This document shows positions 19,461 to 61,205 of a stretch of 61,205 nucleotides of DNA, one piece after another. Source of the DNA: an uncultured Smithella sp. (GTDB lineage Bacteria; Desulfobacterota; Syntrophia; Syntrophales; Smithellaceae); contig CAYNWA010000011.1 of NCBI GenBank assembly GCA_964400795.1, forward strand, positions 26,374 through 87,578, in the 5' to 3' direction. The translations under genes were made by a program, and so were the position numbers. Within the stretch, counting starts at the first letter, position 1. Every line of letters begins with the position of its first letter. The notes below the pieces were generated by a model, which searched no databases, had not been told where the DNA came from, and saw nothing but the letters and a program-made list of their open reading frames with translations.

Positions 19461-19680
19461 CATTATTGAGGATTGCCGTTTGAAAAATAGTATGTTCAAT
19501 ATCAAACCAAACTTTAGGCAGTCTAATCTTCTGGCTTATGTGCAGGTTGATTTATAAACATTCAAAATATCTCATGAAATTCATTAAGTTTACGCGCCAT
19601 CTTGTGCTTGACGCGCAAGGCAATTATTTATATTCATAAAAACTAAAAATTTTTGCTCTATCAATATTGAATTTATTGTG

Positions 19681-23650: not shown

Positions 23651-24339
23651 GATTTTTTAACCTCTTCATCGCTGACGATATGTCCGTCCACAAAGCGAAT
23701 GTTACGCTTGCTGAAGGCGGCAATATCCGGTTCATGCGTCACAAGAATAATCGTCGTCCCGGAATTGCGGTTCAGCTGCACCAGAAGTTCCATGATCTCA
23801 ATGCTTGTTTTTGTGTCAAGATTTCCCGTCGGTTCGTCGGCCATTAGAATGGGAGCTTCATTGACCAGGGCGCGGGCAATTGCCACCCGCTGTTGCTGAC
23901 CGCCGGAGAGTTGATTGGGGTGGTGATATTCTCTTCCTTCAAGGCCAAGCATTTTTAAAGCGGCAAGGGATTTCTTCTTTCTTTTGCCGGCTGGAACGTG
24001 ATTATAAAGAAGGGGGAGTTCCACATTTTCCAGAGCCGATGTCCGGGAAAGCAGGTTGAATCCCTGAAAGACAAAACCGATCTTGCGGTTGCGGATGGTT
24101 GCCAGTTCATCGCGTGACAAACCGCTGATCTGCCGACCATCCAGCGCATATTCGCCGGCCGTCGGCTGATCGAGACAACCGATGATATTCATGAAAGTGG
24201 ATTTGCCGGAACCTGAAGGTCCCATGATGGCGACAAACTCGCCCTTCTTAATCCTGACGGAGACATTTTCCAGCGCACGCACGCCTTCGTCCCCGACATC
24301 ATACGTTTTGACGAGCTGCTTGGTTTCAATGAGAGCCAT
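23647..24339 (-). CDS. MacB/LolD-type ABC ATP-binding protein
   Basis: GPSGSGKST, LSGGQQQRVAIARAL and ADEPTGNLD. Confidence 0.95.
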   Translation of the reverse strand: MALIETKQLVKTYDVGDEGVRALENVSVRIKKGEFVAIMGPSGSGKSTFMNIIGCLDQPTAGEYALDGRQISGLSRDELATIRNRKIGFVFQGFNLLSRTSALENVELPLLYNHVPAGKRKKKSLAALKMLGLEGREYHHPNQLSGGQQQRVAIARALVNEAPILMADEPTGNLDTKTSIEIMELLVQLNRNSGTTIILVTHEPDIAAFSKRNIRFVDGHIVSDEEVKKS

Positions 24340-25526
24340 TACATAAACCTCCGCGGCGGGCGTTGCGTGCTGCTGCCTCCTTTTTTATTATTCAAATTGT
24401 CCGTGATAATATCCTGCCCCGCTTCCAGTCGGCCGGAGATGATTTCCGTATAATTACCGTCACTGATTCCCATGGTAACCTGCACCGGTCTGGGTTTCTC
24501 TTGTTCCAGTACCCAGACGTTTGTTCCTTTTATTTCCTGTTGTTCCGTCCTGATTCCTTTTCTATCGCCCGTTTCTGCAGGTTTGAAGCGCAGGGCGGAG
24601 TTGGGAACCCGTAAAACATCGGGACGCATTTCAATGGTAATGGAAACATTGGCGGTCATTCCCGGTTTTAATTTCAACTGAGGATTGTTCACCTTGACAA
24701 TGACATCGTAGGTTACAACATTCGACACCGTGGTCGGCGCATTGCGCACCTCGGAAACTTTTCCGGCAAAGACCGCGTCCGGATAGGCGTCAACCGTGAA
24801 CGAGACTTCCTGTCCCGTCTGCACCCTGCCGATGTCCGCCTCATCCACACTGGTGTTAATCTGCATTTTGGTCAGGTCCTGGGCTATGCTGAAGAGAGTC
24901 GGAGTTTGAAAGCTGGCGGCAACCGTTTGACCCACATCCACATTGCGGGAGATCACAATTCCGTTCACCGGAGAAATAATGTTGGTGTATTGCAAATTTG
25001 TTTCGGCGATTTTTAACGAGGCCTGCGCCTGGCCAACCTGTGCCTGTGTTACTTTGTGCTGGGCTTCAGCAGCATGCAGATTGGTTTCGGCTGTATCCAG
25101 TTCGCTTTTGGCAATGAAATTCTGAGCAAAGAGTTCCCTGTTGCGTTCATAGGTTCTGCGCGCGTCAGTCACGCTGACGGCAGCTTTTTCCATGTTCGCC
25201 TGTGCCGATAACAGATTGGCACGGGCCTGATCGACCTGTCCCTGAAACGTGGAGGGATCGATCTGTGCGAGCAGCTGACCTTTTTTTACAGGTGAATTGT
25301 AATCAACCAGGAGTTTTCTTATAGTGCCGGATACCTGCGTGCCGACGGAAACCGTTGTCACGGCGTTCACCGTGCCGGTTGCCGTGACGATGGATTTTAT
25401 TTCACCGCGCGAGACTTTTTCCGTTTTGTAGGCGGCTTTTTTCCCGTCTCGGTGAACATAAAAGAATAACCCGGTGACAATGACGGTGATCAGCAATACA
25501 GATATGATAATAATTTTTTTCTTCAT
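24339..25526 (-). CDS. Efflux periplasmic adaptor (MacA-like MFP)
   Basis: VGTQVSG, KKGQLLAQID, SPVNGIV and LKPGMTANV. Confidence 0.93.
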   Translation of the reverse strand: MKKKIIIISVLLITVIVTGLFFYVHRDGKKAAYKTEKVSRGEIKSIVTATGTVNAVTTVSVGTQVSGTIRKLLVDYNSPVKKGQLLAQIDPSTFQGQVDQARANLLSAQANMEKAAVSVTDARRTYERNRELFAQNFIAKSELDTAETNLHAAEAQHKVTQAQVGQAQASLKIAETNLQYTNIISPVNGIVISRNVDVGQTVAASFQTPTLFSIAQDLTKMQINTSVDEADIGRVQTGQEVSFTVDAYPDAVFAGKVSEVRNAPTTVSNVVTYDVIVKVNNPQLKLKPGMTANVSITIEMRPDVLRVPNSALRFKPAETGDRKGIRTEQQEIKGTNVWVLEQEKPRPVQVTMGISDGNYTEIISGRLEAGQDIITDNLNNKKGGSSTQRPPRRFM

Positions 25527-26800
25527 GGGTTTACTCCTATGGATTTTTCCAGTGCGGCCTGTGCAATCTTGTAGTTGTAAAGCGCGGTATTTAAATTAGC
25601 TTTGGCGTTATTAAGCGTTATGGTGGCATCCGCTACTTCGATGGGATTGCCTACACCTGTCCGATATCGTCCCGCAGCCAGATCGTAATTTTCCTGAGCT
25701 TGAACCACCGTCATCTCGGTCACGGCTATTTGTTCTGCGCTGTCCCGAACTTCCAGATAGGCCTGCTCGACCTCTAAACGAATGGCCCGGCGTGTGGCAT
25801 CCTCGTTGGCTTTAAGCACTTCAAGACTGGCATTGGCTTCGTCAACCTGATATTTTGTCAAAAATCCGGAAAAAAGCGGAAAACTCAATGTGGCGCCGGC
25901 ATTCCAGCCGCGTCCCAGGGGAAAATCTGTTCCGGAAAAATCGTATCCGGCGCTGCCCGAGAGGGTCGGATAATAATCCTTTCGCGCGAGTTCAACCGCG
26001 CGTTCTGCCGCTTTACGTTTAGCCCTGATGGAAATGAGATCAGGCCGGCTCGCATAAGCTTTTTTCAGTACATCGTTTAATTCCAATTCGTTTTTCTGAA
26101 AAGCGAGATTATCGATGATGGTAAAATCGGCGTTTTCAGGAACGCCCATGGCATCTTTCAGGGTTATTATGGCGGCGCGAACGGCATTTCCGGCTTTCAA
26201 TACGCTCAACTTCGCGTTGCCGAAATCAACCTCCGCCTTTGTCACGTCGAATTTCGGTTTGGTGCCGATTTGGAAAAAAGCATTGGCCTGATCCAGATGC
26301 TGCTGGAATTGTTTCATGGTGTCGGCAGCGACGCCCTTATTCCGTTGGGTCTGTAGCAGCTTGTAATAAGCTTTTTTCACATTCAGGATGACTTGTGATT
26401 TGACATCGTTGTAGTCGGCGCGAGAGGCCGCAACATTCAAATCCTGGATGTCTACACGGGTTGATGTCTTGCCGAAATCAAAAAGAGTCACTCCGAGGTT
26501 GATTCCCGTTGAATATTGATCATAGGCATCGATACTTTCGCCCGGCGGTGTTGTTGGACCGATCCTTTTATAGCCGGTCGATAAATCGATTTGCGGATAA
26601 TAATTGGACCGGACCTGTCCGACCCGGCTTTCATTCACTTTGATTGTGCCTGCCGACGCCTTGAGATTCGGATGTTTCTCCAGCGCAATGGACAGGCATT
26701 GTTCCAGACTATACAAAACGGTTTCTTCCACCGGTTCCGCGGCTTTCACGGCGAACGGCATTATCAGTAAAAGGATTATAAAAAAAATCTTTTTGTGCAT
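25523..26800 (-). CDS. TolC-family outer membrane efflux protein
   Basis: Signal peptide, YYPQIDL, LFDFG and RYRTGVG..IEV.DA. Confidence 0.9.
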   Translation of the reverse strand: MHKKIFFIILLLIMPFAVKAAEPVEETVLYSLEQCLSIALEKHPNLKASAGTIKVNESRVGQVRSNYYPQIDLSTGYKRIGPTTPPGESIDAYDQYSTGINLGVTLFDFGKTSTRVDIQDLNVAASRADYNDVKSQVILNVKKAYYKLLQTQRNKGVAADTMKQFQQHLDQANAFFQIGTKPKFDVTKAEVDFGNAKLSVLKAGNAVRAAIITLKDAMGVPENADFTIIDNLAFQKNELELNDVLKKAYASRPDLISIRAKRKAAERAVELARKDYYPTLSGSAGYDFSGTDFPLGRGWNAGATLSFPLFSGFLTKYQVDEANASLEVLKANEDATRRAIRLEVEQAYLEVRDSAEQIAVTEMTVVQAQENYDLAAGRYRTGVGNPIEVADATITLNNAKANLNTALYNYKIAQAALEKSIGVNP

Positions 26801-26804
26801 TTTT

Positions 26805-27452
26805 TCACCTGTGGGTTTTTCTTTTCTCTTTCATGAGTCCGCGCAAAGAGAAGGTCGTGATATGTTCCATCAATTCATCGATTTGATTTACGCCGAACGC
26901 TTCACCCGGATAGATTCGGGTGATGACCGGGTGTGAATGCCGGAAATAAAGACATTGACCGACAATACTCATAGCGCAAAGCCGCACAATCCTGTCTTTC
27001 GGGCTTTTGTCCAGAATCGCGGCGATAATTCCGGTGAGCAGTTGAAAGGAAGGGCGAATGTTTTCTTCTACCAGAATATCAAATGCCCATGTCGGATTGG
27101 TAAACTCGCGGGCCAGCAGTTTGCCGAACCAGGCGGGACGATCGTCGTCCATAATCCGCATCAGGAATGACCGGATAAACGCGCGCAGTTTTTCCTCGGG
27201 CTTTTGTGTTTCGGTCATGCCGAGATCAGGAGGGTAGGTTTGAAAAGCGATTTCCTGATAATGTTTCAGTACGGCAAGATACAATTCTTTTTTGTCTCCG
27301 AAATGGTAATTGATGGCCGCGACATTGGCTCCGGCGTGGCTGCAAATGTCTCTGACCGTTGCCTGCTTATAACCTTCCTCGGCAAAGATTCTTCCCGCCG
27401 CTTCGATGATCGCCGCGCGTGTTTTTGAAATTGTTTTTTTGTTTTCCATCAT
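26805..27452 (-). CDS. TetR-family regulator (CecR/YbiH-like C-terminal domain)
   Basis: FAEEGYKQATVRDICSHAGANVAAINYHFGDK helix-turn-helix; heads the efflux operon. Confidence 0.9.
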   Translation of the reverse strand: MMENKKTISKTRAAIIEAAGRIFAEEGYKQATVRDICSHAGANVAAINYHFGDKKELYLAVLKHYQEIAFQTYPPDLGMTETQKPEEKLRAFIRSFLMRIMDDDRPAWFGKLLAREFTNPTWAFDILVEENIRPSFQLLTGIIAAILDKSPKDRIVRLCAMSIVGQCLYFRHSHPVITRIYPGEAFGVNQIDELMEHITTFSLRGLMKEKRKTHR

Positions 27453-34687: not shown

Positions 34688-35938
34688 TTATGTTTTAAAT
34701 GGATATCTGCTTTGTATCTCTACAAATATCATATCCTTCTTTTCTTTCAATATAGCAAAGCTTGTTTGCATTGTTGAACTCATAAATATAATATTTCCAA
34801 GATCTGAACCCAAGCCCAGCGATTCAAGATTATTAACGTGAGTTAAATTAGCTGAAAGGATGTCTGTGTTAATATTATAAGGAGGAAGTGTTTTAAAAAT
34901 GTCACCCTGATATTCTACCCCATATTTCGACAGATATGCTATTTTTTTTACATAGTTTTCATTTCTCATTTTGGAAATTGATTGCTTAATGCGATAGGCA
35001 ATCTGATATTCCGACATTTTCTTGACTTCATTTTTTTCAAATTCAATGACACTAGAGAAAACTGCGTTACCCATATATGATGAATCAACATCAGGATGAA
35101 TGTATCTTAGATTAATGGGAATCCTTAATCTGACTTTATCAGTATCAGGCATAATTTCTTCATGATATTTTTTTAGTATTAAGGCATTTATAATTTGATT
35201 ATGGGAAATTACGTAGTTCTCATTTTCTGATTTTGCTTTGTTTTTAATTTCATCAAGTAATTTTTCGGTAAAGTATTCTCTTTTATAATATGTCTTCCAG
35301 CAATTTAAATTTTTAACTCGATTTTGAATTTCATCGTTTAACTCGGATAATGGAGGAATGAATGCTCTGTCAATCGTGTCAAAACAAACGGGTTGACCCT
35401 TGAATAGTCTCTGATTTGAGGGCATGGGGAAATTATGTCCATAGTGTATACATCCCCATGCAAACATAAAAAGCATCAAGGACGTAGCATCGCCTACCGC
35501 ATGAGAACAACTGATCCCACCTAATATGCCATCCTTTACTGGTATTAATGTAATAGCAAAAAGAGGTTCTCCCGGTAATGTTTTAACATGCTTTATTTTA
35601 TTCATTACATCATCAATATTTATATGATCGGAAGCTACATCAATAAACGGCAAAACATGATATTCAAAACCCTCTTTGCAATATTGGAGCGCATATTTAT
35701 TTTCATCAATCATTATTAAACGGCTGGAAAAAAGGTTGTAATGTTTAATGGTCTTCAAGAGACTTTCTCTTGCTTTCGAGAGAGAGGTCTTTTTCTTATA
35801 AAATACCAAAAATTCCGTTGGCCTGCTGCCGGGATAATCTTTATTTTCAAATATCGACAAAGGTAGAATATTGTTGCCATAATTATTTTCCAGATATGCA
35901 TTTCTTGCATCTTTACAGGTCTTCTGATTTTCTGTCAT
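34688..35938 (-). CDS. CoA-dependent acyltransferase, HxxxD (BAHD/condensation-like) family; paralog of 19681-20928
   Basis: SCSHAVGD motif and many blocks shared with the paralog. Confidence 0.7.
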   Translation of the reverse strand: MTENQKTCKDARNAYLENNYGNNILPLSIFENKDYPGSRPTEFLVFYKKKTSLSKARESLLKTIKHYNLFSSRLIMIDENKYALQYCKEGFEYHVLPFIDVASDHINIDDVMNKIKHVKTLPGEPLFAITLIPVKDGILGGISCSHAVGDATSLMLFMFAWGCIHYGHNFPMPSNQRLFKGQPVCFDTIDRAFIPPLSELNDEIQNRVKNLNCWKTYYKREYFTEKLLDEIKNKAKSENENYVISHNQIINALILKKYHEEIMPDTDKVRLRIPINLRYIHPDVDSSYMGNAVFSSVIEFEKNEVKKMSEYQIAYRIKQSISKMRNENYVKKIAYLSKYGVEYQGDIFKTLPPYNINTDILSANLTHVNNLESLGLGSDLGNIIFMSSTMQTSFAILKEKKDMIFVEIQSRYPFKT

Positions 35939-50138: not shown

Positions 50139-50193
50139 TGGTGCCGAAGACTGGATTTGAACCAACACAGGCATACCTCCACAAGTCGCTGAA
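50139..50193 (-). pseudogene. Degenerate 3' fragment of tRNA-Leu (probable att scar)
   Basis: Minus strand reads TTCAG...GGAGGTATGCCT-GTGTTGGTTCAAATCCAGT-CTTCGGC-A-CCA: variable arm, T-loop and a Leu-type acceptor strand. No matching 5' half GCCGAAG is seen. Confidence 0.65.
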
Positions 50194-50346
50194 TGCAGAA
50201 ATCAGGACATTCAAGGATAAGAAGGGATAGCAAGAACTTATTATGATGTCAAATAAAATGATCATTTTATCGCGGTAAGAACAGCAAGCTTTTCGTAATG
50301 AATTATACAAAATTTCGAGTCATTGAGAATTTTCCCGCCGATCGCA

Positions 50347-51192
50347 TCATTCCCGAATGACCTGTTGAGGAGATTTTTCAAGAACCAAGGGATTTTCCAC
50401 GCATTCTTTAAAAAATAAAAGTATGTCGCAGGCCTTTTTACCATCGAAGATTCGTTCATCTATGGTGAATCCGAATTTGATGACATCTGAAACTTTTAGC
50501 GTGCCTTCAGGTGTCACGACCGGTGCTTTATGCATTGCGCCTATAGTAACAAAAACCGATGCGTTCCCCCAGTCATAGAGATGATGATAAAGAGACTTTA
50601 AACCAAAAGATCCTATGTCTGAAACTACACACGAAGAAAACAAAGGGTTATCTTTATATGATGCATAGGGCAAAAGTCCTTTGTCAATCAGCCATGGATA
50701 TAATATCGCGCAAAATGACGAAATAAAATTGGGAAGTTTCATAAAGAAATCGATTATATTTTCATTGCTGTCGGCCGGTTTTTTAACTGTGTCATTAATA
50801 ATTTCTTTAATTTCCTTTGAGACGTCAAAAATATCCCATTCGGGTTGTCCAAATATTTTACGAAGAACAATTTTCCCGTTGATGTTTATAGCGAATGCTG
50901 CGGAATATTCACGTCTGGCGTAGAATTTATGATTATAAATAAATCTGTTTATCTCGGGAAACTGACTTGTTGTTCTAAGAAGAGCAGAAATGACCAGCTC
51001 AAAAATTGTGATATCATGACCTTCTTTTTTTTTGTTGTTTATAAAATTAACGGTGTGAGCAACGTCAACTTCCAGTTCATGCCAAACAATGGCTTCACTT
51101 CGTTTGGGCATGAAAAATGTGTAGCATTTCTGAAAACTGCTGATTGTTTTAAGATGGCGTCCATCTTTTCTTCCCATGTCAACCTCCGGCAA
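50347..51192 (-). CDS. Standalone 2-oxoacid dehydrogenase E2-like acyltransferase catalytic domain
   Basis: PEINRFI, SDIGSFG...YHHLYDWG and TIDERIFDG. No lipoyl or E3-binding domain. Confidence 0.75.
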   Translation of the reverse strand: MPEVDMGRKDGRHLKTISSFQKCYTFFMPKRSEAIVWHELEVDVAHTVNFINNKKKEGHDITIFELVISALLRTTSQFPEINRFIYNHKFYARREYSAAFAININGKIVLRKIFGQPEWDIFDVSKEIKEIINDTVKKPADSNENIIDFFMKLPNFISSFCAILYPWLIDKGLLPYASYKDNPLFSSCVVSDIGSFGLKSLYHHLYDWGNASVFVTIGAMHKAPVVTPEGTLKVSDVIKFGFTIDERIFDGKKACDILLFFKECVENPLVLEKSPQQVIRE

Positions 51193-51400
51193 AACAGAAT
51201 ATTCATTTGAGAGTTTTACTTGAAACTAATCGTGGTTTGGTATACATGAACAATGCAAAAAGTCAATAAGATGTTGGTCTTTAAATGTGCGAATTAAATG
51301 CGAAAAATAAAAATCTCCTTTTTAATAATTAAGATTCAGGTTATGTTTAACATCCGGTGTGTTCTGAAAAGAGGGACATTATTACCGGAGCGGTAAATTA

Positions 51401-52642
51401 ATGATGAAATGGATCAAGTTGTCATTACGCAATATATTAAGAAATAAACGCCGCTCTTTATTTACTATTGTCACCATAAGCATCGGTTTTGCTTCCATTG
51501 GATTGTGCTACGGATATCTTCATCATACCTATTGGGCTTTAAGCTATCTTGCTATTCACGGTGAAGGACTCGGACATCTGAGAATCAACAAAGCCGGATG
51601 GAAACAATATTCAAAGATGGACAAATTAAAATACATGTTTACATATGAAGAAACCCAAAAAATAATGAAGATTGTCGGTGAAGAAAAAGATGTGATATTG
51701 TCCACACCTCAGATTCAGCTCGCCGGTCTGGTGAGCAATGGTGAAATTTCCACTCTTTTTGTCGGTCAGGGTGTTGTCCCCAAAGACGATAAAATTCTTC
51801 AGACACAACGGTGGATCAAATATTCAAAGATCAAAGGGAAAAGATTGACGGAAGACGATCCCTCCGGTGTGGAGATGTCAAAAGGTTTGAGTAAATATCT
51901 CAATTTAATACCGGGGACAAAAGGCGTGGTTATGTCAAACACAGTCGATGGCCAGATGAAAGCTCTCGATATAAAAATAAATGGGGTCTACGATGCAGGA
52001 AATGAGATTTCCAATAACAAATTTTTACGATTCAATTTAAAATTTGTCCAGTCTCTCCTTGACACTCCATCGACAGAAAGAATCGTCGTTTTGCTCAAAG
52101 ACGTCACAGAAACAGAGGTAATGCGTAAACGCTTACTAAAGAAACTCGACGCTGCCGGCATAAATTGTGAAATGCTGACATGGAATGAATTGTCAATGGT
52201 TTATTCCAAGGTAAAATCTTTTCTCGACGCGATCTTTATTTTTCTTTTTGTTATCGTTTTGTTTATCGCAGTATTATCAATCATTAATACCATGAGCATG
52301 GTGGTCCTGGAAAGAACAAGAGAGATTGGGACATTGCGTACGCTGGGTTTAAAACGCAAAGGCGTAACCATAATTTTTGCTTTGGAGGGAGCTTGCCTGG
52401 GGTTTTTCGGCAGCATAGCCGGTTTTGTGTTGCATAGTGTCGTTGTGGGTATTACCAGATATCATCCCATGCGCTACACGCCGCCGGGTGCATCGAGTTC
52501 CGTATTGCTTTATATAGATATGGTGCCCGATGCGCTGTTTGTATTATTTATAAACTTTATTTTGCTGTCCATGGCGTCAGCTGTTGTTTCCGCCAGGCGC
52601 GCAGCCGGTAAAAATATTGTCGATGCGCTGGGGCATACTTGA
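51401..52642 (+). CDS. FtsX/LolE-type ABC permease (orphan in this window)
   Basis: RNILRNKRRS, VLERTREIGTLRTLG and IVDALGH. Confidence 0.88.
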   Translation: MMKWIKLSLRNILRNKRRSLFTIVTISIGFASIGLCYGYLHHTYWALSYLAIHGEGLGHLRINKAGWKQYSKMDKLKYMFTYEETQKIMKIVGEEKDVILSTPQIQLAGLVSNGEISTLFVGQGVVPKDDKILQTQRWIKYSKIKGKRLTEDDPSGVEMSKGLSKYLNLIPGTKGVVMSNTVDGQMKALDIKINGVYDAGNEISNNKFLRFNLKFVQSLLDTPSTERIVVLLKDVTETEVMRKRLLKKLDAAGINCEMLTWNELSMVYSKVKSFLDAIFIFLFVIVLFIAVLSIINTMSMVVLERTREIGTLRTLGLKRKGVTIIFALEGACLGFFGSIAGFVLHSVVVGITRYHPMRYTPPGASSSVLLYIDMVPDALFVLFINFILLSMASAVVSARRAAGKNIVDALGHT

Positions 52643-52749
52643 AATCTTAAACGAGTAGGCAAAAAGGTTTTTACGGATATTTCATATCAAACAGCGAAAA
52701 ATTTTATTGTGAGACTCAAATTTCAAAAACGAAGTGCGTTGAAATTTGC

Positions 52750-52862
52750 CAGTCGAACAATCCCGCGATAAGCGGAGGGTATAATTCCCCGCCCCTTAGA
52801 GCGAAATTAGGGTTCAGTCCCGATAGCAATCGGGATTGCCTTGGGGTTCATACCCGTGATGC
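52750..52862. repeat. REP-like intergenic element
   Basis: TCCCGAT-AGCA-ATCGGGA palindrome (52818-52835) shared with the elements at 19341 and 39295. Boundaries approximate. Confidence 0.5.
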
Positions 52863-52943
52863 CGGAAATTCAAAAATTTCTGAATTATGATTTAACATAA
52901 GCTGGAAAATTGAAATAAATATTGTAGAGGTTATTGCTGAATT

Positions 52944-53801
52944 TTGAAAAATGTACTGGTTGCCGGAGCCTCATCCGGCATAGGACTTGCTGCATCGCGC
53001 CAACTTAATACTGACGGTTTCTGCGTCTACGCGGGCGCGCAATCATTCGGCAAAGAACAAATCGCATCCGAAGGGTTTATCATGTTGCCCCTGGATGTCA
53101 CCGATGATTTGTCCGTACAGGAAGCAATCCGGAATATTATACAAAGAGATGGCCGCATTGACGCGCTGGTAAACTGTGCCGCGTTTTTGACACTGGGAGC
53201 CTGCGAAGACGTCTCCGCTGAAGAATTACGCCTGGTCATGGAAACAAACTTTTTAGGAATGGCACGCATGACCCGGGCAGTGCTGCCAGCCATGCGCGAA
53301 CAGCAATATGGCCGTATTGTTAATATTTCATCTCTGAACGGTCTGTTCGGCATTCCTTTTCAGGGTGCCTATACAGCATCCAAGCACGCGATTGAAGGTT
53401 GGAGTGAAAGCCTTGCCCAGGAAACAAGACGATTCGGCATTTATGTGACCCTTGTGGAGCCGGGTGATTGTCGGGGCGGTGCTTTGAAGTACCGGACACG
53501 CGCGAAAGCTGCTGAGAAAAAAACTTCCCCTTATGCAGCATGGTATAAAAAAGCTGTCGACAAAATCATTCACGATGAACAAAACGGTCTCCATCCGGAG
53601 CGTGTGGCTCTTGCCATATCAAGCATTCTGCAAAGCCGGTGTCCGCCGTCTCGCCGAATTGTTGCAGATCCAATTCAGCGCTCGGCTGTTTTATTGCACA
53701 AGTTGCTGCCTCGTAGTGTATTTAACCGCATGATTGAAGTTTATTACACACCTGGGCAAGACGATATGCGATCTGAAATAAAAAAAATGGAGGGTAATTG
53801 A
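52944..53801 (+). CDS. Short-chain dehydrogenase/reductase; candidate 3-ketosphinganine reductase
   Basis: GASSGIG, NCA, YTASK and EPGD. Its stop overlaps the next ATG (TGATG). Confidence 0.85.
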   Translation: MKNVLVAGASSGIGLAASRQLNTDGFCVYAGAQSFGKEQIASEGFIMLPLDVTDDLSVQEAIRNIIQRDGRIDALVNCAAFLTLGACEDVSAEELRLVMETNFLGMARMTRAVLPAMREQQYGRIVNISSLNGLFGIPFQGAYTASKHAIEGWSESLAQETRRFGIYVTLVEPGDCRGGALKYRTRAKAAEKKTSPYAAWYKKAVDKIIHDEQNGLHPERVALAISSILQSRCPPSRRIVADPIQRSAVLLHKLLPRSVFNRMIEVYYTPGQDDMRSEIKKMEGN

Positions 53802-55057
53802 TGCCGGGGGAAAAAGATCAGCTGGCTTCGGCATTGCAGCAGGTTTTAAATAAAAAACAATCCAATAGAGATCCAAGAGTATTTACTGAAGACGTCTCTG
53901 TGCAACTGGCGATACTGATGAAAGAAATGGGATTGTATCCTTACTTCATGCCGATATCAGGGCAAATCGGACCGCGAATAATCATTGACGGCAGAGATAC
54001 CATTAACCTTGGCTCCAACAATTACATGGGACTGGCAAACCATCCGGATATGATTAAAGCCGGATGCGATGCCATGAGGAAATACGGTACGGGGTGCACG
54101 GGATCGCGCTTTCTCAATGGAACGCTTGAAATTCATAATGAACTGGAAGCAAAACTTGCAAAATTCTTTCAAAAAGAAGCCGCTCTTTGCTTTACGACGG
54201 GGATGCAGACGAACCTTGGCGTTATCTCTGGAATTACTCATAAGGGTGACCACATCATTTCCGATGAGAATAATCATGCCAGCATTATTGATGGCTGTCG
54301 GCTTTCACGTGCCAGCACTCATGTTTACAAGTATAATAATATGGATGATCTGAAAAGAGTTCTGACCGGTCTTCCAGAACAAGGTAACCGCTGGATCATC
54401 AGTGATAGTATTTTTTCCATGGAAGGGAATGTTGCTCAGATACCGCGTATTGTCGAACTGGCTGAAAGATACAGCGCGCGTGTAATTATTGACGATGCCC
54501 ATGGTATTGGCCACTTCGGGGAGCACGGGGAAGGTATTTGCGGACATTTGGGGTTAATGGATAAGATCGACATCCTCGTCGGTACATTTTCCAAATCATT
54601 TGCCAGCATTGGAGGTTTTTGCGCGGCCGGCAGAGAGATTATTCAACACCTTCAGCATCATGCGCGCAGTTTGATTTTCAGCGCTTCGATGCCCCCGGCT
54701 ATGGTTGCTACGGCCAGCAAAGCCCTGGATATCTTTTATGATGACGATAAAAGAAGAAAACAGGTTTTGCAAAATGCTTCCATTCTAAGAAAAGGTATAG
54801 AGTCTCTGGGGTTTAGAACTGTCCCACAAAAGATACCCACACCCATCATTCCCATTATTGTAGGAGATGTAATGAAATTAGCTTATTTCAGCAAGGGACT
54901 TCTGGAAAACGGTGTCTATATAAATCCGGTCATTCCTCCTGCGTCATCGGAAGCCATGATCAGAATGTCCGTTATGGCTACTCATTGTCAAAAGGATCTC
55001 AAAGATGCCCTGATCATATTGGAAAAAGAAGGCAGGAAACTGGATTTGATAAAATAA
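53801..55057 (+). CDS. spt: Serine palmitoyltransferase-like alpha-oxoamine synthase
   Basis: GLYPYF, GSNNYMGL, YGTGCTGSRFLNGT, NHASIIDG, DDAH, GTFSKS (PLP Lys), IFSAS, NPVIPPA and RMSVMATH. GGAGGG RBS. Confidence 0.78.
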   Translation: MPGEKDQLASALQQVLNKKQSNRDPRVFTEDVSVQLAILMKEMGLYPYFMPISGQIGPRIIIDGRDTINLGSNNYMGLANHPDMIKAGCDAMRKYGTGCTGSRFLNGTLEIHNELEAKLAKFFQKEAALCFTTGMQTNLGVISGITHKGDHIISDENNHASIIDGCRLSRASTHVYKYNNMDDLKRVLTGLPEQGNRWIISDSIFSMEGNVAQIPRIVELAERYSARVIIDDAHGIGHFGEHGEGICGHLGLMDKIDILVGTFSKSFASIGGFCAAGREIIQHLQHHARSLIFSASMPPAMVATASKALDIFYDDDKRRKQVLQNASILRKGIESLGFRTVPQKIPTPIIPIIVGDVMKLAYFSKGLLENGVYINPVIPPASSEAMIRMSVMATHCQKDLKDALIILEKEGRKLDLIK

Positions 55058-55134
55058 CGAACTTATCGAGAATAACACATAATCATATCGCATTAACCAT
55101 TTCAAGATTATAAATTGTTACCAAAGGAAGCATC

Positions 55135-55842
55135 ATGAAACTCAAACAGAACCAAGACGGTAAAAAAGTACTAAAAACAATTTCCAATGATCGCACAAGA
55201 ACCAATTTAATAAGAAAGCCTGAACACATTGCGTTGGTTTTTTTAGTTCAACGCATTCCTTCCTGGATGAGTTCAGACACGCTTACGTTTATCGGATTGT
55301 TAGGAAGCGCAATAACGCTGACGGGTTTTGTTTTAGCCGCCCATATTCAACCCTGCTATTTTTTACTGTGTGTTCTGGGTTTGGCCATAAACTGGTTTGG
55401 TGACTCTCTGGATGGACGACTTGCCTTCTATCGCAACAAATCCCGTCAATGGTATGGATTTACGCTTGATATTATCATCGATTGGATAAGTATAATTTTA
55501 ATAGGTTTGGGATATTTGCTTTATGTTGAAGGCAACTGGAAACTGGCAGGTTTCGGACTCATTGTTTTGTATGGATGGAGTATGCTGATTACGTTGTTAC
55601 GGTATAAAGTTACGGGGAAATATATCATTGATTCCGGTATTTTCGGACCGACGGAAGTCAGGATTCTCATAGCGCTCTTTTTAATTCTTGAAATATTTTT
55701 CAAAGACATCATTTTGTATTCTGCAGCGCTTGCTTGCCTTGTTTTATTCTTCATCAATATTACCGACTCTCTTAAATTGCTAAGCCTTGCTCATGGCAGG
55801 GATCTTGAAGAAAAGCAAAATAATTTATACGGGAAAAAATGA
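55135..55842 (+). CDS. CDP-alcohol phosphatidyltransferase family protein
   Basis: DSLDGRLA...G...D...D signature and GPTEVR; multi-TM. Confidence 0.9.
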   Translation: MKLKQNQDGKKVLKTISNDRTRTNLIRKPEHIALVFLVQRIPSWMSSDTLTFIGLLGSAITLTGFVLAAHIQPCYFLLCVLGLAINWFGDSLDGRLAFYRNKSRQWYGFTLDIIIDWISIILIGLGYLLYVEGNWKLAGFGLIVLYGWSMLITLLRYKVTGKYIIDSGIFGPTEVRILIALFLILEIFFKDIILYSAALACLVLFFINITDSLKLLSLAHGRDLEEKQNNLYGKK

Positions 55843-56020
55843 TTAAAAAAATTTATTTTCATGGTAACTTTAAGCATTTAGCATTTTTCTGGTCTTATCG
55901 GAAAATAAACTGGCCTCAATGCTCTGGGTGATTCCCATATTGTCACAGTATCTTTTGATGAATCTCGTGATGCCTATGTGCCAGGGAGGATTACTTTGGA
56001 TGCTATTGAAATGTTCTAAC

Positions 56021-57466
56021 CTATTTTTCTGAAGGCATGAGATTTTTTCGTTCCTTGTATGCCCAAACGCCCAGAGCGATCATTAATGCAAGGTAAATCG
56101 GAATTCTCCAGAAAAGAGGGAACAGTGCGAACCGGGATTGAACAAAAAAGACTGCTCCGATGAATCCGAACAGACAAAGCATATGTGGCGTCAGTTCCCG
56201 TTTGTAAAGCCAGCGTCCCGTCAGGCGGGTTTGTAAGACGATGACTTGAAGAAATTGCACGCCAATCATTAGAAGCGAGGTAAACGCCGCGCCTAATAGT
56301 CCATGCTGGGGTATGAGCATCACTCCGAATGTCGCCGCAAACAGCAATGTAATCACATTCCGCTTCAGCATCAGTGTGCTTTCCCCCAATCCATAAATCA
56401 CTTGAGAAGAAAGTTCACCGATTCCATTAACGAGCCGCCCGGAGAGGAGAATGAGAAACGCAAACAAATCGACGGAATACTGAGCTCCCGCTATGGACAG
56501 CAGTTCCTTGGGAAAACATGCCATGGTTGCGGCCACAGCGATCTGGATCATGGATACCATGCGAACGGTGTAGGAAAGGACATCCCTTAATTTTTCCCGT
56601 TGGTCATTTGATTGCAGGTGACTGACGATCGGGACGATTAGAGGATCATAACTCAACCGGACTTTCGCGATGCCGTCCGCGAGCATGCGCATGATTCCAT
56701 AGACAGCTGCAGAAGCGGGTCCGAGAAAGAAGAGCACCATCCAAAGATCAATTTGTGTAATGATATTTGCTATTAACCGTGCAAACGCTACGGGCAATGA
56801 ATAGCGAATCAGGCTTTGATCCACGGCTGTAATTCCTCTTTCAAGACTTGGGGGGAAATTATTTGCGAGGTATGTCAGAATGACGATGGCGCAAATCCAT
56901 TTCGCTCCGAACAGGCTCCATGCCAGGGCATTCGAAATTCCCGTCGGCCAGAGGGCAATGGCCAGAATCGGGATAAAGGAAAGGGAAAGAAATTGTTCCC
57001 ATATGGCGCGATATTGCGGTTTCCGGATTCCCATCAGGCATGCGGAACCATAACTGAGAACGACTGAGCCGGGAACGCTGAAAAGACAAATGGTGTAGAA
57101 CCCTAGCGTAACATGTTCAAAGCCGGTTGGGATCCATGCCTTACCGGTTGATAAGACGAGCACGGCAAAAAAAATGAAGCCCCCACTTAGAAAAAGCACA
57201 ATAAGCAACCACTTCCAGACTGTCCCGGCCGTCTGACCCTCTGTCGTTGATTGTTTCGGTATCCACCATGTCATCCCGGAGCTCATGCTCAAGCCGAGAA
57301 TCGTGGCAAGTGTTGTACAAAATGACTGCATCGAGATGAAGATTCCAAACATCTCCTGATTAAAAAGTCTCGGGACAATCAACATTAACGGTGAAATAAT
57401 GATTCTCAAAACCATTGCCGACATGTTGATAAACGAACCGCGAAAAATGAATCGGGTTTCAGACAT
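56021..57466 (-). CDS. MOP-superfamily (Wzx-like) oligosaccharide/lipid flippase
   Basis: About 13 TM segments, ..FG.., RYSLP, D.WMV.FFLG...AAVYG and PQHGLLGAA. Start at 57466 or 57484. Confidence 0.85.
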   Translation of the reverse strand: MSETRFIFRGSFINMSAMVLRIIISPLMLIVPRLFNQEMFGIFISMQSFCTTLATILGLSMSSGMTWWIPKQSTTEGQTAGTVWKWLLIVLFLSGGFIFFAVLVLSTGKAWIPTGFEHVTLGFYTICLFSVPGSVVLSYGSACLMGIRKPQYRAIWEQFLSLSFIPILAIALWPTGISNALAWSLFGAKWICAIVILTYLANNFPPSLERGITAVDQSLIRYSLPVAFARLIANIITQIDLWMVLFFLGPASAAVYGIMRMLADGIAKVRLSYDPLIVPIVSHLQSNDQREKLRDVLSYTVRMVSMIQIAVAATMACFPKELLSIAGAQYSVDLFAFLILLSGRLVNGIGELSSQVIYGLGESTLMLKRNVITLLFAATFGVMLIPQHGLLGAAFTSLLMIGVQFLQVIVLQTRLTGRWLYKRELTPHMLCLFGFIGAVFFVQSRFALFPLFWRIPIYLALMIALGVWAYKERKNLMPSEK

Positions 57467-58580
57467 GGTCGAGTCCTTCTTCACGGGATGGTTCCGGAAC
57501 GACTTCCTGTGTCCGGTCTCCTAACCCTTTTTCCATCATGATGTCCACGAAGCGCTCTCGTTCGTCCGGAGGTATGTTGTTCAGACACGCCAATCCGGCG
57601 TTTGATCCGGCAACCTGTTTCCAGAACAGCTCTATGTTTTCAGAAACGGAGGACGAGGGAAAATCAAACATCGCATGCGGTGCGGAAAGGTACCGGAAGA
57701 GGTGTCGATAAATGCGGTCATGAGGGTCCCATGCAGACAGATTTCCGAAAAGATGCAGATAAAGACGGTCATGAGGGTTCCATTTCTTTTCCATGCTGTA
57801 AAGAATGGTATAATAGGAAATATCTTTGGCATCACGAAAACGCCGCTGGCGAGTTTCCTCCAGGATAGGCCCGAATTCCTCTTCGACGCGCCATGCCGTT
57901 GATTTGCGAATGACAAGAGTCGAATGTATCGGAAAGATAATTTCATAACCGGCAAGACGGTGCCTGCATCTTCTTAGGTGGTCGTAAGCGTTCGCAATAC
58001 CAGAGGAGTAGATATTTGTTCGATACTGCGGCGATACGCGGGAATATTGTCGTTTTATCCACCTGAAATAGGCCGGATGAGTATGCAACTTAAGTGAAAT
58101 TGATCTGTTCCCCTTTATCGTGAAAAAAAAGCTCGGGTTGATTGGTGAAAAATGCATAACATCGTCGTTATTGTGGAGAAAGATTTCGGACAACCCGTCA
58201 ATACGATAGAGAAACGAACCAATGGCTCTGCTGTTAAATGTCGGGAGGCATTGTGCAGGAATGATTTCCCGGTGATCGATGATTTGGACTTGCCCCGAGT
58301 TGAGCAGATGAGATGCAAGGGGCGGAACCTGGGCATCGGTTACGATGAAGATTTTACGAATCCACGGCAGATATTTCAGAACGCTGTTGACGCTGAAAGT
58401 GATTTCTCCTACATCAAAGAAGCGGATATCGATATCTCCTGTATCGGAAACGTTTTTTGATAACGTTGCGTCTGGAGACTCCGAACGATACCGGTGACGT
58501 TTTTCCAGATGTACAGGATCGCTGCCATCGACATAGGTGAATACCATGTCTATCGGAATTTTCGATGTGACTGAATTCAT
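57459..58580 (-). CDS. Stealth-family hexose-1-phosphate transferase (copy 2)
   Basis: CR1 PIDMVFTYVDGSDP; CR2 KYLPWIRKIFIVT...LPTFNS...RIDGLSE...NDD; CR4-like CLNN. Start at 58580 after an AAGGAG RBS. Confidence 0.9.
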   Translation of the reverse strand: MNSVTSKIPIDMVFTYVDGSDPVHLEKRHRYRSESPDATLSKNVSDTGDIDIRFFDVGEITFSVNSVLKYLPWIRKIFIVTDAQVPPLASHLLNSGQVQIIDHREIIPAQCLPTFNSRAIGSFLYRIDGLSEIFLHNNDDVMHFSPINPSFFFTIKGNRSISLKLHTHPAYFRWIKRQYSRVSPQYRTNIYSSGIANAYDHLRRCRHRLAGYEIIFPIHSTLVIRKSTAWRVEEEFGPILEETRQRRFRDAKDISYYTILYSMEKKWNPHDRLYLHLFGNLSAWDPHDRIYRHLFRYLSAPHAMFDFPSSSVSENIELFWKQVAGSNAGLACLNNIPPDERERFVDIMMEKGLGDRTQEVVPEPSREEGLDHV

Positions 58581-58608
58581 GGGTTGCCCCTGTGCTCCTT
58601 TGTAATAT

Positions 58609-59664
58609 CTACTCACCTTTTGAAAGCATCGATACAGAGTCCGTTGCTGTTTCAGCCAATCCTTTTTGCCTCATAACTTCTTCGAACCGCCGGCGTTCAC
58701 TAATGGGCATGTTGTTCAGGCACGCCAGTGGAGCATGAGATCCGGTTATGCGTTTCCAGAGCAGATTACTGTTTCCAAACACGGAAAACGCAGTGAAGTC
58801 GAACATCGTGTTGGGGGCAAAAAGACTTCCCCAGAAGTGCAGATGAACGCGGTTCTGCGGATTCCATTTGTTTTCCATGCTGTAAAGAATTGTGTAATAA
58901 GAAAGATCTCTGGCATTTCGAAAACGTCTGCGGCGGGTTTCTTCCAGAATAGACCCAAACTCCTCCTCTACCCGCAGGGCTGTCGCTTTGCGCCAGATTT
59001 TCGTTGCGTGTACCGGCACGAGAATCTTACGACAGGCAAGATGATGCCTGCATTTTCTCAGAAGAGAATATGCGTTAGAAATCCCGATCGTGTGAAGGTT
59101 GGTGCGATATCCCCAAAATATATAAGATAACTCGGTCATTATCCATCGATACACGGCCGGATAGGTGTGCAACTCAAGGGAAATTGCTCCTTCCGCATTT
59201 GTTGTGCAAAAGAAGTCGGGGTGGATCGGAGAAAAATGCATGTAGTCGTCATTATTGTAGAGAAAGATTTCGGATAAACCATCGATGCGGTGGAGAAACG
59301 ATTCAATGACGTTGCTGCTGAATATGGGCAGGTATTGTGAAGGAATGAATTCCTGAGGATCAACAATTCGGATGCGGCCTGAATTTAGAAGATGCAAAGA
59401 AACGGGAAGTCGTGGGGTTTCGGTTACAATGAAGATCGTGCGGATCCACGGCAGATATTTCAGCACACTGTTGACGCTGAACGTGATTTCCCCGACGTTG
59501 CGGAAACGGATATCGACATCGCCCGAATCGGAGACGTGATTTGATCGTACGGTGTCCGGGAGTTCCGAACGATAACGGCTGCGTGTTTCCAGATATTCGG
59601 GATCATCGCCATCGACATAGGTGAATACCATGTCTATCGGAATTTTCGATGTGACTGAATTCAT
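58609..59664 (-). CDS. Stealth-family hexose-1-phosphate transferase (copy 1)
   Basis: PIDMVFTYVDGDDP, KYLPWIRTIFIVT, IESFLHRIDGLSEIFLYNNDD and CLNN. Confidence 0.9.
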   Translation of the reverse strand: MNSVTSKIPIDMVFTYVDGDDPEYLETRSRYRSELPDTVRSNHVSDSGDVDIRFRNVGEITFSVNSVLKYLPWIRTIFIVTETPRLPVSLHLLNSGRIRIVDPQEFIPSQYLPIFSSNVIESFLHRIDGLSEIFLYNNDDYMHFSPIHPDFFCTTNAEGAISLELHTYPAVYRWIMTELSYIFWGYRTNLHTIGISNAYSLLRKCRHHLACRKILVPVHATKIWRKATALRVEEEFGSILEETRRRRFRNARDLSYYTILYSMENKWNPQNRVHLHFWGSLFAPNTMFDFTAFSVFGNSNLLWKRITGSHAPLACLNNMPISERRRFEEVMRQKGLAETATDSVSMLSKGE

Positions 59665-59717
59665 GAGTTGCCGCGGCGCTCCTTTTGCTGGACAAATAAT
59701 GCAATGGTTATTAATAA

Positions 59718-61205
59718 TTACAAATTGAATTTAATGCCCAGCATTGCTTGATAATTAAGAACACCGCCATATTCCGTATCTTCATTTCCCACGTTAATCG
59801 CTGTAGTACCAAAAATATCCCAATAATCACCCAGTGAATATGAAAAGAGTCCAAATAATTGGCCGGAGCCATCATCGAAATTTTGCGTCCAGCGTAAGGT
59901 AACGGCTAATCTGTTGAATATGTTAACCTGATGATATTGAAGCATGACGTAGTTTCTGCGTAAAAATCTTAGCCCGGGATCTGTGGGTTGAGAAGAAAGA
60001 TAGTCTAAGATATCTTCCTTGGTTTTCAACGCCCAACGGCTATTCTTTTTGTGTATCGTACGATCGTAATCGTCAGAAGCTTCTTGTAGAGTAGAGAAAG
60101 CCAGGTTGGCTTCATCTTTATCATAACCAACTCCATTATATAAATACTCCAGGGTTAAGGTACCTCCATTGAAAAACGTGTATGCCCCTCCGGCCAGAAT
60201 GGATGGCCTAATATCATTGTCATCACTATGGATCTGTTGCAGGGAGGCTCCGAAACGTGATGAATCCTTTACAGGATACCACGCGTTGCTTCCTTGTCGT
60301 ACATTTCCTTCTGTGTAAAGCAGCAGAGCATCAGATGCTGTCCATACACCGAAAAAGCCGAATTTATCCGTTTGATTGGCTTCCTTTCTTGAATAAATTA
60401 AAGATCCGTAACCGTTAACACCTGTATAATCAATCTTAAGGGCATAGGTTTTATCAAAAGGTTCCAAATTGGGGAGGGTATTACGTCCTTCATCCGTATT
60501 AGCAATCAGAGATATTGACCAGTCGGAATGGGGAACCAACAAAAGACGAACGAAATCCATTCCCTGAATTTCCGCGTAGGTATTGCCCCGGCCGTTATCG
60601 CTAAAAAAAGGATTAGACGGAGAAACAAGGAAAGAAGGACCCCATTGCAGATTTTCTCTTCCGTAGGACACAAAAAGTCTGTTCCACCCATTTAGTCTGA
60701 CTAACCATTCGTTTACGTACCAGTCATCTTTTCCTTCTGTATCTCCTTCACGCATCCCTTCTTCCCAAAGCCGACAGTCGAGTTTCGCTCTGGGTTTGGC
60801 GGAAAGCTCCAGGTAATTTGAATTAAAATAGAAATCGGGCCTTATTTCCAGATCAGCACGATAATGCGGAATTTCAAGAAAATCATTGTTGGGATTGCGG
60901 CTCGATTCAACGGGATCCTGAGCAATTCCATAAGCGAGGACTTTCAAATCTGACGAAAAAAAATTCCTGATTTTTTGTAATGTCGTTTGGTTTTCGGCAT
61001 CCATCAGTATCATATCGATATTTTCATCGGATAAACGTAATGCCTCCGGATTTCCTTCAACGGAAGGAGCGCTTGTAATACCTGACGTTTCCTCCGGAAG
61101 AGCTTTTGGAGATTGAGAGGAATATTGATCTTCGACAAACTCTTCATGAGGATTTTCTGTAGCCCGGGCTGGACTCGGCATCCATAAAAAAGGAACAATG
61201 ACTAG
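59718..61205 (-). CDS. Exported, probable outer-membrane beta-barrel protein; 5'-partial (frame open to the window edge)
   Basis: The frame continues upstream of 61181 as LVIVPFLW-MPSPARA, resembling a signal peptide. GRENLQWG motif, alternating beta-strand pattern and C-terminal GIKFNL. Confidence 0.7.
   Translation of the reverse strand, partial: LVIVPFLWMPSPARATENPHEEFVEDQYSSQSPKALPEETSGITSAPSVEGNPEALRLSDENIDMILMDAENQTTLQKIRNFFSSDLKVLAYGIAQDPVESSRNPNNDFLEIPHYRADLEIRPDFYFNSNYLELSAKPRAKLDCRLWEEGMREGDTEGKDDWYVNEWLVRLNGWNRLFVSYGRENLQWGPSFLVSPSNPFFSDNGRGNTYAEIQGMDFVRLLLVPHSDWSISLIANTDEGRNTLPNLEPFDKTYALKIDYTGVNGYGSLIYSRKEANQTDKFGFFGVWTASDALLLYTEGNVRQGSNAWYPVKDSSRFGASLQQIHSDDNDIRPSILAGGAYTFFNGGTLTLEYLYNGVGYDKDEANLAFSTLQEASDDYDRTIHKKNSRWALKTKEDILDYLSSQPTDPGLRFLRRNYVMLQYHQVNIFNRLAVTLRWTQNFDDGSGQLFGLFSYSLGDYWDIFGTTAINVGNEDTEYGGVLNYQAMLGIKFNL

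Follow-up and report, generated by a model that had tools for sequence, protein, structure and literature searches.

A gene block flanked by tRNA-Leu fragments

The window analyzed here is a 61,205-nt contig stretch of an uncultured Smithella sp., and the block under study is its right end, from position 50139 onward, where genes predicted to act in sphingolipid-base synthesis lie next to genes for Stealth sugar-phosphate transferases, a flippase, and possible export components. An earlier note, made from the sequence alone, had picked out this combination, and all of the genes that it named are present, with support from hidden Markov models; the flippase was recognized by its fold and the phosphotransferase by its catalytic motif, the Pfam scores of both being sub-threshold. 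The coordinates bear out the layout it described, in which a plus-strand run (dehydrogenase/reductase, serine palmitoyltransferase [SPT]-like enzyme, and CDP-alcohol phosphotransferase) converges on a minus-strand run (exported protein, two Stealth proteins, and flippase). The E2-like acyltransferase gene and the permease gene that it placed alongside are also found, with the correction that the E2-like gene lies to the left of the permease gene and is transcribed divergently from it.

The left border is a 55-nt copy of the 3' part of a tRNA-Leu(CAG) gene (50139–50193, minus strand), an att-like scar that forms the left direct repeat bounding the block. It is identical at 45 of 55 positions to the 3' end of the intact tRNA-Leu(CAG) gene (15480–15566) in contig L001 from a Smithella metagenome-assembled genome (MAG). 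ARAGORN and Rfam called no tRNA in the window, the scar included, and the scar was recognized only via the intact L001 gene. The earlier note had proposed extending the contig to the right; contig L011, from a sediment metagenome, is 97–98% identical to the window at the DNA level and extends 6.3 kb beyond its right end. We took the right end of the block from this contig: the start of the gene for a 510-amino-acid secreted protein, a gene for a LolA-like protein, and, upstream of the latter, a second 55-nt copy of the tRNA-Leu 3' end (L011 5140–5194; 48/55 identical). The scar that the earlier note saw as a boundary is thus a real 55-nt fragment with a partner at the opposite end, the left and right copies matching at 46 of 55 positions. 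The intact tRNA-Leu(CAG) gene occupies the corresponding right-border position in L001, and the left fragment is kept at the equivalent site in both L001 and L006, a contig from a more distant relative. The border repeats share one orientation, and the 3' end of the intact tRNA gene points toward the block, a pattern that is classically left when an element integrates site-specifically into a tRNA gene.

Ten genes lie between the two repeats, which argues for their acquisition and inheritance as a unit. From these sequence features, the block is a discrete island of about 12.2 kb, reaching to about position 62350 in window numbering when completed from L011, and most likely horizontally acquired and integrated at tRNA-Leu(CAG). 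Its GC content (0.434, vs 0.454 for the rest of the window) is unremarkable, and no integrase gene was found in the island or in the 5–6 kb to its right. A promoter and terminator scan of the region gave counts close to shuffle expectation. The left flank is made up of housekeeping genes (DsbD, AhpC/thioredoxin, a metallo-beta-lactamase-fold protein, an ABC-F ATPase, OmpA, and an M23 peptidase).

To the right of the right-border tRNA-Leu repeat, the close strains represented by L001 and L011 diverge (L011 1–5139 vs L001 15535–18256). In L001, the intact tRNA gene is followed by FAD synthase and asd genes, whereas L011 has only the 3' tRNA fragment, followed by genes for zinc-ribbon, TPR, and staphylococcal-nuclease-homologue proteins. 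This difference suggests that the same tRNA hotspot has undergone a second rearrangement or insertion.

Genes of the two arms

The plus-strand SPT operon begins with a short-chain dehydrogenase/reductase (SDR) gene (52944–53801) whose product is probably a 3-ketodihydrosphingosine reductase. Its top NCBIfam model is KdsR (NF049977, 235 bits), under the cut-off of 400 and just 15 bits over a generic SDR model. The SDR stop overlaps by 4 bp the start of the next gene (53798–55057, plus strand), which encodes an alpha-oxoamine synthase of the CFB-type SPT clade. This enzyme scores 455 bits to the SPT model NF047600, ahead of TIGR01825 (BioF/Kbl-related, 389 bits), Kbl (368 bits), and BioF (366 bits). 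Among solved structures, Sphingobacterium multivorum SPT (PDB 3a2b) gives 344 bits, other SPTs 265–279, Kbl 254, and cysteate acyltransferase 211; ALAS and CqsA likewise score below the SPT models and structures. The motifs carrying the pyridoxal phosphate lysine (GTFSKS) and the histidine (NHASIIDG), together with DDAHG, align with those of 3a2b, and the enzyme has a C-terminal loop similar to the one in Sphingobacterium SPT. These comparisons support the grouping of the oxoamine synthase with SPT and a predicted condensation of serine with an acyl thioester. A BioF/Kbl identity, which the earlier note had named as the assignment that would overturn its reading, was rejected because the SPT models and structures score higher.

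The closest relatives of the Smithella SPT include homologues from Asgard archaea (53–62% identity), among them the closed genome of Candidatus Lokiarchaeum ossiferum (CP104013.1) and MAGs of Promethearchaeota and Kariarchaeota. All of these homologues score best to the CFB-type SPT model (460–520 bits), and the Smithella/Asgard clade as a whole scores 435–520 bits, also under that model's cut-off of 640. The Lokiarchaeum SPT-like gene (L017 8001–9248) lies about 3.6 kb from ESCRT-II/Vps4 genes, with no SDR or phosphotransferase gene nearby. We found no paper pairing serine palmitoyltransferase with Asgard archaea, and a Black Sea study found no archaeal Spt (PMC11334938).

A CDP-alcohol phosphotransferase gene, closest to the choline/ethanolamine type (55135–55842, plus strand), starts 78 bp after the SPT gene. 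Its 235-amino-acid product scores 20.0 bits to PF01066, just under the gathering score of 22. The motif D90xxD93G94xxA97xxR100...G108xxxD112xxxD116 is invariant among 23 homologues; relative to the family signature DxxDGxxAR...GxxxDxxxD, all four catalytic Asp and both Gly are retained and the Arg is shifted (DGxxAxxR). Searched against the PDB, the family profile matched human CEPT1 (8gyw, E = 6e-11) and CHPT1 only, with no match to PgsA- or PIPS-type chains, which points to a reaction of the "CDP-alcohol plus lipid hydroxyl" type. The enzyme is accordingly predicted, from this sequence relationship, to attach a phospho-headgroup to a lipid alcohol.

This CEPT-like family, well conserved and about 230 amino acids long, is widespread in Bacteroidales (Tannerella and Prevotellaceae), where its genes are mostly solitary and sometimes adjoin GtrA or DUF2141 genes (L010, L012, and L013). 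We found no enzyme assignment for this family in the literature, and no paper assigning the enzymes that make the phosphoethanolamine and phosphoglycerol dihydroceramides of Bacteroidales. We regard the family as a candidate for the phospho-dihydroceramide headgroup transferase in Bacteroidales.

The gene order in L011 indicates that the minus-strand operon comprises, in order of transcription, genes for the LolA-like protein, the 510-amino-acid secreted protein, Stealth B, Stealth A, and the flippase. The last of these (56021–57484, minus strand) encodes a Wzx-like protein of the MOP superfamily, with 25.4 bits to PF01943 (cut-off 28.2). An AlphaFold2 (AF2) model built from 10 sequences (predicted local distance difference test [pLDDT] 81, predicted template modeling score 0.84) has the MOP fold; the top hit of a fold search was the lipid III flippase WzxE (9g9n; E = 3e-7, TM-scores 0.63/0.73), followed by MurJ and MATE proteins. 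The subfamily is rare, with 10 proteins found among 5.8 billion.

Two tandem paralogues encode predicted Stealth hexose-1-phosphate transferases, both on the minus strand: A (57459–58616), which most likely starts at Met13 (58580), giving a gene of 57459–58580, and B (58609–59664). They are about 60% identical, with an N-terminal sequence common to both. Both exceed the gathering scores for conserved regions CR1, CR2, and CR3 (A: CR2 100.8, CR1 32.1, and CR3 25.3 bits; B: CR2 94.3, CR1 28.4, and CR3 25.1 bits); CR4 gave no match in either at E <= 0.01. The best PDB matches of Stealth B are Mycobacterium tuberculosis CpsY (8j2n, 81 bits) and the catalytic domain of GNPTAB. Neither protein has a signal peptide. 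No initiating phosphoglycosyltransferase, Wzy, Wza, or Wzc was found among the island genes, and the Stealth arm is therefore not a self-sufficient Wzx/Wzy capsule locus and would need an external lipid acceptor. We rejected its interpretation as a complete locus of that kind for want of the initiating transferase, polymerase, and exporter.

The exported protein noted earlier was found, cut by the window end: its gene (59718–61181, minus strand, in an open reading frame running to the window end at 61205) lacks about 15 codons at its 5' end. The full-length copy (L011 6235–7767) encodes 510 amino acids with a signal peptide (...PARA|TE) and the C-terminus ...GIKFNL. It has no NCBIfam match and no Pfam or PDB match even at E <= 10; a single-sequence AF2 model of the 487-amino-acid window form was unusable (pLDDT 31). 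With low confidence, we suggest that the protein may be an outer-membrane beta-barrel. Its gene is preceded, at a distance of 6 bp and outside the window, by the LolA-like gene (L011 5468–6229), whose 253-amino-acid product carries a signal peptide and scores 108.8 bits to PF17131 (LolA_like).

The two remaining genes lie at the left of the island, in the same arm as the SPT operon. The leftmost (50347–51192, minus strand; PF00198, 59.7 bits) probably starts at Met6 (51177) and then encodes a 276-amino-acid protein with the E2/CAT acyltransferase fold. The fold match covers the catalytic domain only, without lipoyl and E3-binding domains. The protein has 1221 relatives among the 1.84 billion representatives searched, most of them standalone proteins of 270–310 amino acids. 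In an alignment of the query with the best 150 of these, the position of the catalytic His is Glu in 127 of 151 sequences and Asp in 15 of 151; the protein therefore belongs to a distinct, uncharacterized family in which Glu at this position is general. One family member also carries a fused AMP-ligase C-terminal domain. Within the island, conservation is highest for the E2-like protein (88–95% across variants). We rejected its identification as a canonical E2, since it has neither the catalytic His nor a lipoyl domain.

The neighboring gene (51401–52642, plus strand), kept in L001, L006, and L016 (a contig whose flippase is 78% identical), encodes an FtsX-family permease of the LolC/E-like, type VII ABC class (PF02687, 59.5 bits; TIGR02212 lolCE, 84.8 bits). 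Elsewhere in the window (22421–27452, minus strand) is a TetR/CecR-regulated efflux operon of the MacB type, comprising OEP, an HlyD-family adaptor, an ABC ATPase, and a MacB_PCD/FtsX permease. Its ATPase is the nearest such candidate partner for the orphan island permease, and nothing links the two.

A predicted phosphosphingolipid pathway and its alternatives

An SPT search of genome contigs gave three loci, and a flippase-alignment search of metagenomes gave one, from a near-identical strain; with so few loci returned, the co-occurrence of the two arms rests on four architectures and not on statistics. The complete gene set and order are found in the Smithella MAG CAYZRT010000042 (L001/L005; SPT 96% identical), in a Logan contig, and in Syntrophaceae UBA6255 (L006; SPT 86%). 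L016 keeps the island genes and adds, downstream of the phosphotransferase gene and on the strand of the SPT operon, genes for a GT92 glycosyltransferase and a radical-SAM/SPASM protein. The island is thus conserved in relatives down to 78–86% protein identity. At least three tandem Stealth paralogues are found in L006 (13632–16148), the contig ending within the third; with two in the window and one in the unrelated contig L008, Stealth copy number varies between variants.

Two more distant contexts recombine parts of the island. In L008 and L009, which are unrelated contigs from a different organism, genes for the phosphotransferase (65% identity), flippase (43%), and Stealth protein (43%) recur in the same convergent layout, the first facing the other two, and adjoin genes for a polyketide synthase (PKS), an oxoamine synthase (31% to the window SPT; best model BioF), and an SDR (28%). 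Further genes there encode DUF6492, an LPG-synthase-TM flippase-like protein, an MJ1255/MurG-like glycosyltransferase, a polysaccharide deacetylase, and an MptA-like GT-C protein. This layout suggests that a nonorthologous long-chain amino-alcohol module has been joined to the same phosphotransferase/flippase/Stealth trio. The type I PKS itself (L008 1–6385; >2582 amino acids; KS-AT-DH-MT...) overlaps the BioF-like oxoamine synthase gene by 11 bp, the SDR gene following; by analogy, the arrangement resembles the fumonisin/sphingofungin logic for making a polyketide amino alcohol, here in a bacterial metagenome contig. In L014 and L015, the flippase gene (38%) shares an operon with genes for an ABC ATPase, a 796-amino-acid FtsX permease, and DUF3108, and the divergent neighbors encode a membrane-fusion protein, a CDP-alcohol transferase (33%), a B12 radical-SAM enzyme, an amine oxidase, and LPG-synthase-TM. 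Judged from these contexts, the stable core is the phosphotransferase and the flippase, often with an FtsX-type exporter, while the lipid-core and Stealth parts vary.

We propose, as a reading that we hold about evenly balanced between right and wrong, that the genes of the island form one pathway that makes and exports a complex phosphosphingolipid bearing sugar-phosphate units. On the basis of homology and operon structure, SPT would condense serine with an acyl thioester, and the KdsR-like SDR would reduce the 3-keto product to a sphinganine-type base. An N-acyltransferase would then yield dihydroceramide; the E2-like protein is a weak candidate for this step, which may instead be performed by an enzyme encoded elsewhere. 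Given its family type and co-transcription with SPT, the CEPT-like phosphotransferase would place a phospho-alcohol headgroup on the C1 hydroxyl, to which the two cytoplasmic Stealth enzymes might add hexose-1-phosphate from UDP-sugars. The Wzx-fold MOP protein could move the product over the inner membrane, and the FtsX permease, with an ATPase from elsewhere, may extract it and pass it by a Lol-like relay to the LolA-like carrier, the 510-amino-acid protein, and finally the outer membrane.

Several observations argue for a single pathway. The topology is consistent, in that the Stealth proteins lack signal peptides and the LolA-like and 510-amino-acid proteins have them, and one operon of L014 unites the flippase orthologue with an ABC ATPase and an FtsX permease, beside a CDP-alcohol transferase. 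A functional link between the arms is supported by the conservation of the island in relatives and by the recurrence of the trio beside a different oxoamine synthase and SDR.

Other findings weigh against this proposal. Both SPT and SDR fall below the NCBIfam equivalog cut-offs (455 vs 640 and 235 vs 400 bits). The island genes include no known bCerS, and the E2-like protein has the motif DERIFDG in place of DHRxxDG, with Glu at the catalytic His position. Nor do they include a cytidylyltransferase for the CDP-alcohol donor or an ABC ATPase, the nearest ABC ATPase genes belonging to other operons. The two arms are convergently transcribed, so that no co-regulation is demonstrated. The SPT relatives at 65–68% identity (L003, L004, L007, and L018) have no other island genes within 8–10 kb, nor does the Asgard homologue in L017; SPT and Stealth genes, whose co-occurrence elsewhere the earlier note had made a test of its reading, are therefore conserved together in the Smithella and Syntrophaceae variants and not in these solitary relatives. 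The many Bacteroidales homologues of the phosphotransferase (55–61% identity) are solitary, and L014 and L015 hold the flippase and CDP-alcohol transferase without SPT or Stealth. The FtsX proteins of the window and of L014 belong to the same family and have no detectable pairwise similarity; we do not count them as orthologues. The "ceramide-anchored" product of the earlier note was overstated, as it needs an N-acyltransferase for which the sole candidate is the E2-like protein without the catalytic His, and its phospho-headgroup is weakened by the lack of a CDP-alcohol donor enzyme in the island; we infer the product entirely.

Some of these points also fit an explanation that is possible and somewhat unlikely, namely that the island carries two independent cargo modules that were co-mobilized: a phosphosphingolipid operon (SDR, SPT, and CDP-alcohol transferase, e.g., of the ceramide phosphoethanolamine or phosphoglycerol type) and a phosphoglycan or exopolysaccharide operon (LolA-like protein, secreted protein, two Stealth enzymes, and flippase) acting on undecaprenyl phosphate or another acceptor. 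Convergent transcription and the solitary SPT relatives are what such an origin would leave, as is the abundance of solitary phosphotransferase genes, without Stealth, in sphingolipid-making Bacteroidales; Stealth enzymes are, moreover, known as capsule polymerases, and the island pair matches CpsY and GNPTAB. A freestanding glycan operon is, however, hard to reconcile with the missing initiating phosphoglycosyltransferase, polymerase, and Wza/Wzc, and independence of the arms with the recurrence in L008 of the convergent trio beside another oxoamine synthase and SDR, with the glycosyltransferase added on the SPT-operon strand in L016, and with the distribution of the permease and its presumed periplasmic and outer-membrane partners over opposite arms.

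It is improbable that the lipid core is something other than ceramide, namely a free or otherwise modified long-chain amino alcohol (a 1-deoxy base made with alanine, a base of the sulfonolipid type, or an unacylated sphingoid), or that diacylglycerol or another glycerolipid is the substrate of the phosphotransferase, flippase, and Stealth enzymes, with the amino-alcohol lipid a separate product: the subequivalog scores of SPT and SDR, the lack of a recognized ceramide synthase in the island with an E2-like protein that has no His, the CEPT1/CHPT1 relatives of the phosphotransferase, which use diacylglycerol, the pairing of flippase and transferase with a radical-SAM/amine-oxidase lipid module in L014, and the correlation of Black Sea Desulfobacterota with 1-deoxyceramides (PMC11334938) would fit, but the oxoamine synthase is clearly nearer to characterized SPT, whose C-terminal loop from Sphingobacterium it shares, than to Kbl, BioF, ALAS, CqsA, or cysteate acyltransferase, and a 1-deoxy base has no C1 hydroxyl for the co-transcribed phosphotransferase.

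We consider doubtful the fullest form of the single-pathway proposal, in which the island would be a complete, self-contained, and mobile route to a sphingolipid-anchored phosphoglycan in syntrophic Smithella, with Stealth enzymes acting on a headgroup, a rare flippase specific for phosphosphingolipids, Lol-like sphingolipid export by the FtsX permease, the LolA-like carrier, and a new outer-membrane protein, and a ceramide synthase of the E2 fold marked by the "DER" motif.

Outside the island, two paralogous genes in the window (19678–20928, plus strand, and 34688–35938, minus strand) encode 416-amino-acid proteins, 54% identical to each other, that belong to PF02458 ("Transferase", BAHD/HxxxD acyltransferases) and carry a SHAVADG motif. 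The family is unusual in bacteria, and both genes lie in patches of low GC content (0.34–0.37). Directly downstream of the first is a gene (20949–22265, plus strand) whose product combines a GNAT acetyltransferase with a beta-keto acid cleavage enzyme (BKACE) domain in a single fusion protein.

Comparison with known systems

The earlier note knew of no described cluster combining SPT and Stealth, and we likewise found no paper that joins the two. Its statement that sphingolipids are not established in syntrophic Desulfobacterota is weakened by the publication in 2024 of Spt-like genes in Desulfobacterota MAGs from the Black Sea, together with a correlation to 1-deoxyceramides (PMC11334938). 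The taxonomic surprise is correspondingly smaller.

The nearest described bacterial cluster is perhaps that for inositol-phosphorylceramide in Bacteroides thetaiotaomicron (BT_1522–BT_1526), which has been reported to be connected with the capsule (Heaver et al. 2022; PMC9246714). Like the island, it groups membrane enzymes for a phospho-alcohol sphingolipid headgroup, including a member of the CDP-alcohol phosphotransferase family, and it has GtrA- and LPG-synthase-like neighbors of the kind also seen in L012, L008, and L014. Its CDP-alcohol enzyme, however, makes PIP-DAG from CDP-diacylglycerol, and an AUR1-like enzyme transfers the headgroup to ceramide, whereas the Smithella phosphotransferase is CEPT/CHPT-like and not PIPS-like; the Bacteroides cluster also has no SPT, Stealth, MOP flippase, FtsX, or LolA-like parts and no tRNA-bounded island. 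In Porphyromonas gingivalis, presentation of surface polysaccharide is reported to depend on sphingolipids (PMC5126122).

The island Stealth proteins share CR1–CR3 with Neisseria meningitidis CsaB and CsxA, M. tuberculosis CpsY, and human GNPTAB, and are similar in sequence to the last two. The Neisseria enzymes act in ABC-transporter (group 2) capsule loci with a glycerolipid-Kdo anchor, whereas the island pair, in which CR4 was not detected, sits with a Wzx-fold flippase and an SPT operon. If the proposed pathway is correct, Stealth enzymes would act outside capsule polymerization, on a lipid headgroup.

Bacterial ceramide pathways include the Spt–bCerS–CerR route of Caulobacter and the SPT–KdsR route of Bacteroidota. 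The island has the SPT and ketoreductase of such pathways, with best models of the Bacteroidota-type KdsR and CFB-type SPT, and differs in that no bCerS (GNAT) or CerR was found in it, the sole acyltransferase-like gene being that of the "DER" E2-fold family. In the fullest form of the proposal, that family would be a new type of ceramide synthase. Among enzymes of the Kennedy type, CEPT1 and CHPT1 are the best solved relatives of the phosphotransferase family profile, and the Drosophila ceramide phosphoethanolamine synthase is a further likeness; the insect enzyme joins a CDP-alcohol to the hydroxyl of ceramide, chemistry that would suit a ceramide acceptor. The island enzyme differs from these in being a 235-amino-acid bacterial protein with the DGxxAxxR variant and no cytidylyltransferase nearby.

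To our knowledge, little is understood of the route that takes bacterial sphingolipids to the outer membrane. Candidates for filling this gap lie near SPT in the island, namely its flippase, type VII ABC permease, LolA-like carrier, and secreted partner; in the fullest form of the proposal, the Lol-like relay would represent the first dedicated pathway for sphingolipid export to the outer membrane. The likeness to the Lol/MacB type VII systems (LolCDE–LolA–LolB) lies in the LolC/E-scoring FtsX permease, the LolA-like periplasmic protein, and the secreted, possible outer-membrane partner. The differences are that the island has no ATPase, that the permease and LolA-like genes are in opposite arms, that the predicted cargo is a glycolipid and not a lipoprotein, and that the 510-amino-acid partner has no detectable family.

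A lipid anchor with phosphodiester-linked sugars, as predicted here, would be analogous to fungal mannosyl-di(inositolphosphoryl)ceramide [M(IP)2C], plant glycosylinositol phosphoceramides, and the lipophosphoglycan of Leishmania, although the enzymes are unrelated except for SPT. A mobile surface-glycolipid module in syntrophs could, we speculate, influence contact with their methanogen partners. Relative to the known sphingolipid clusters, the new elements of the Smithella island would be its Stealth enzymes, its rare flippase, its Lol-like parts, and its tRNA-bounded mobility.

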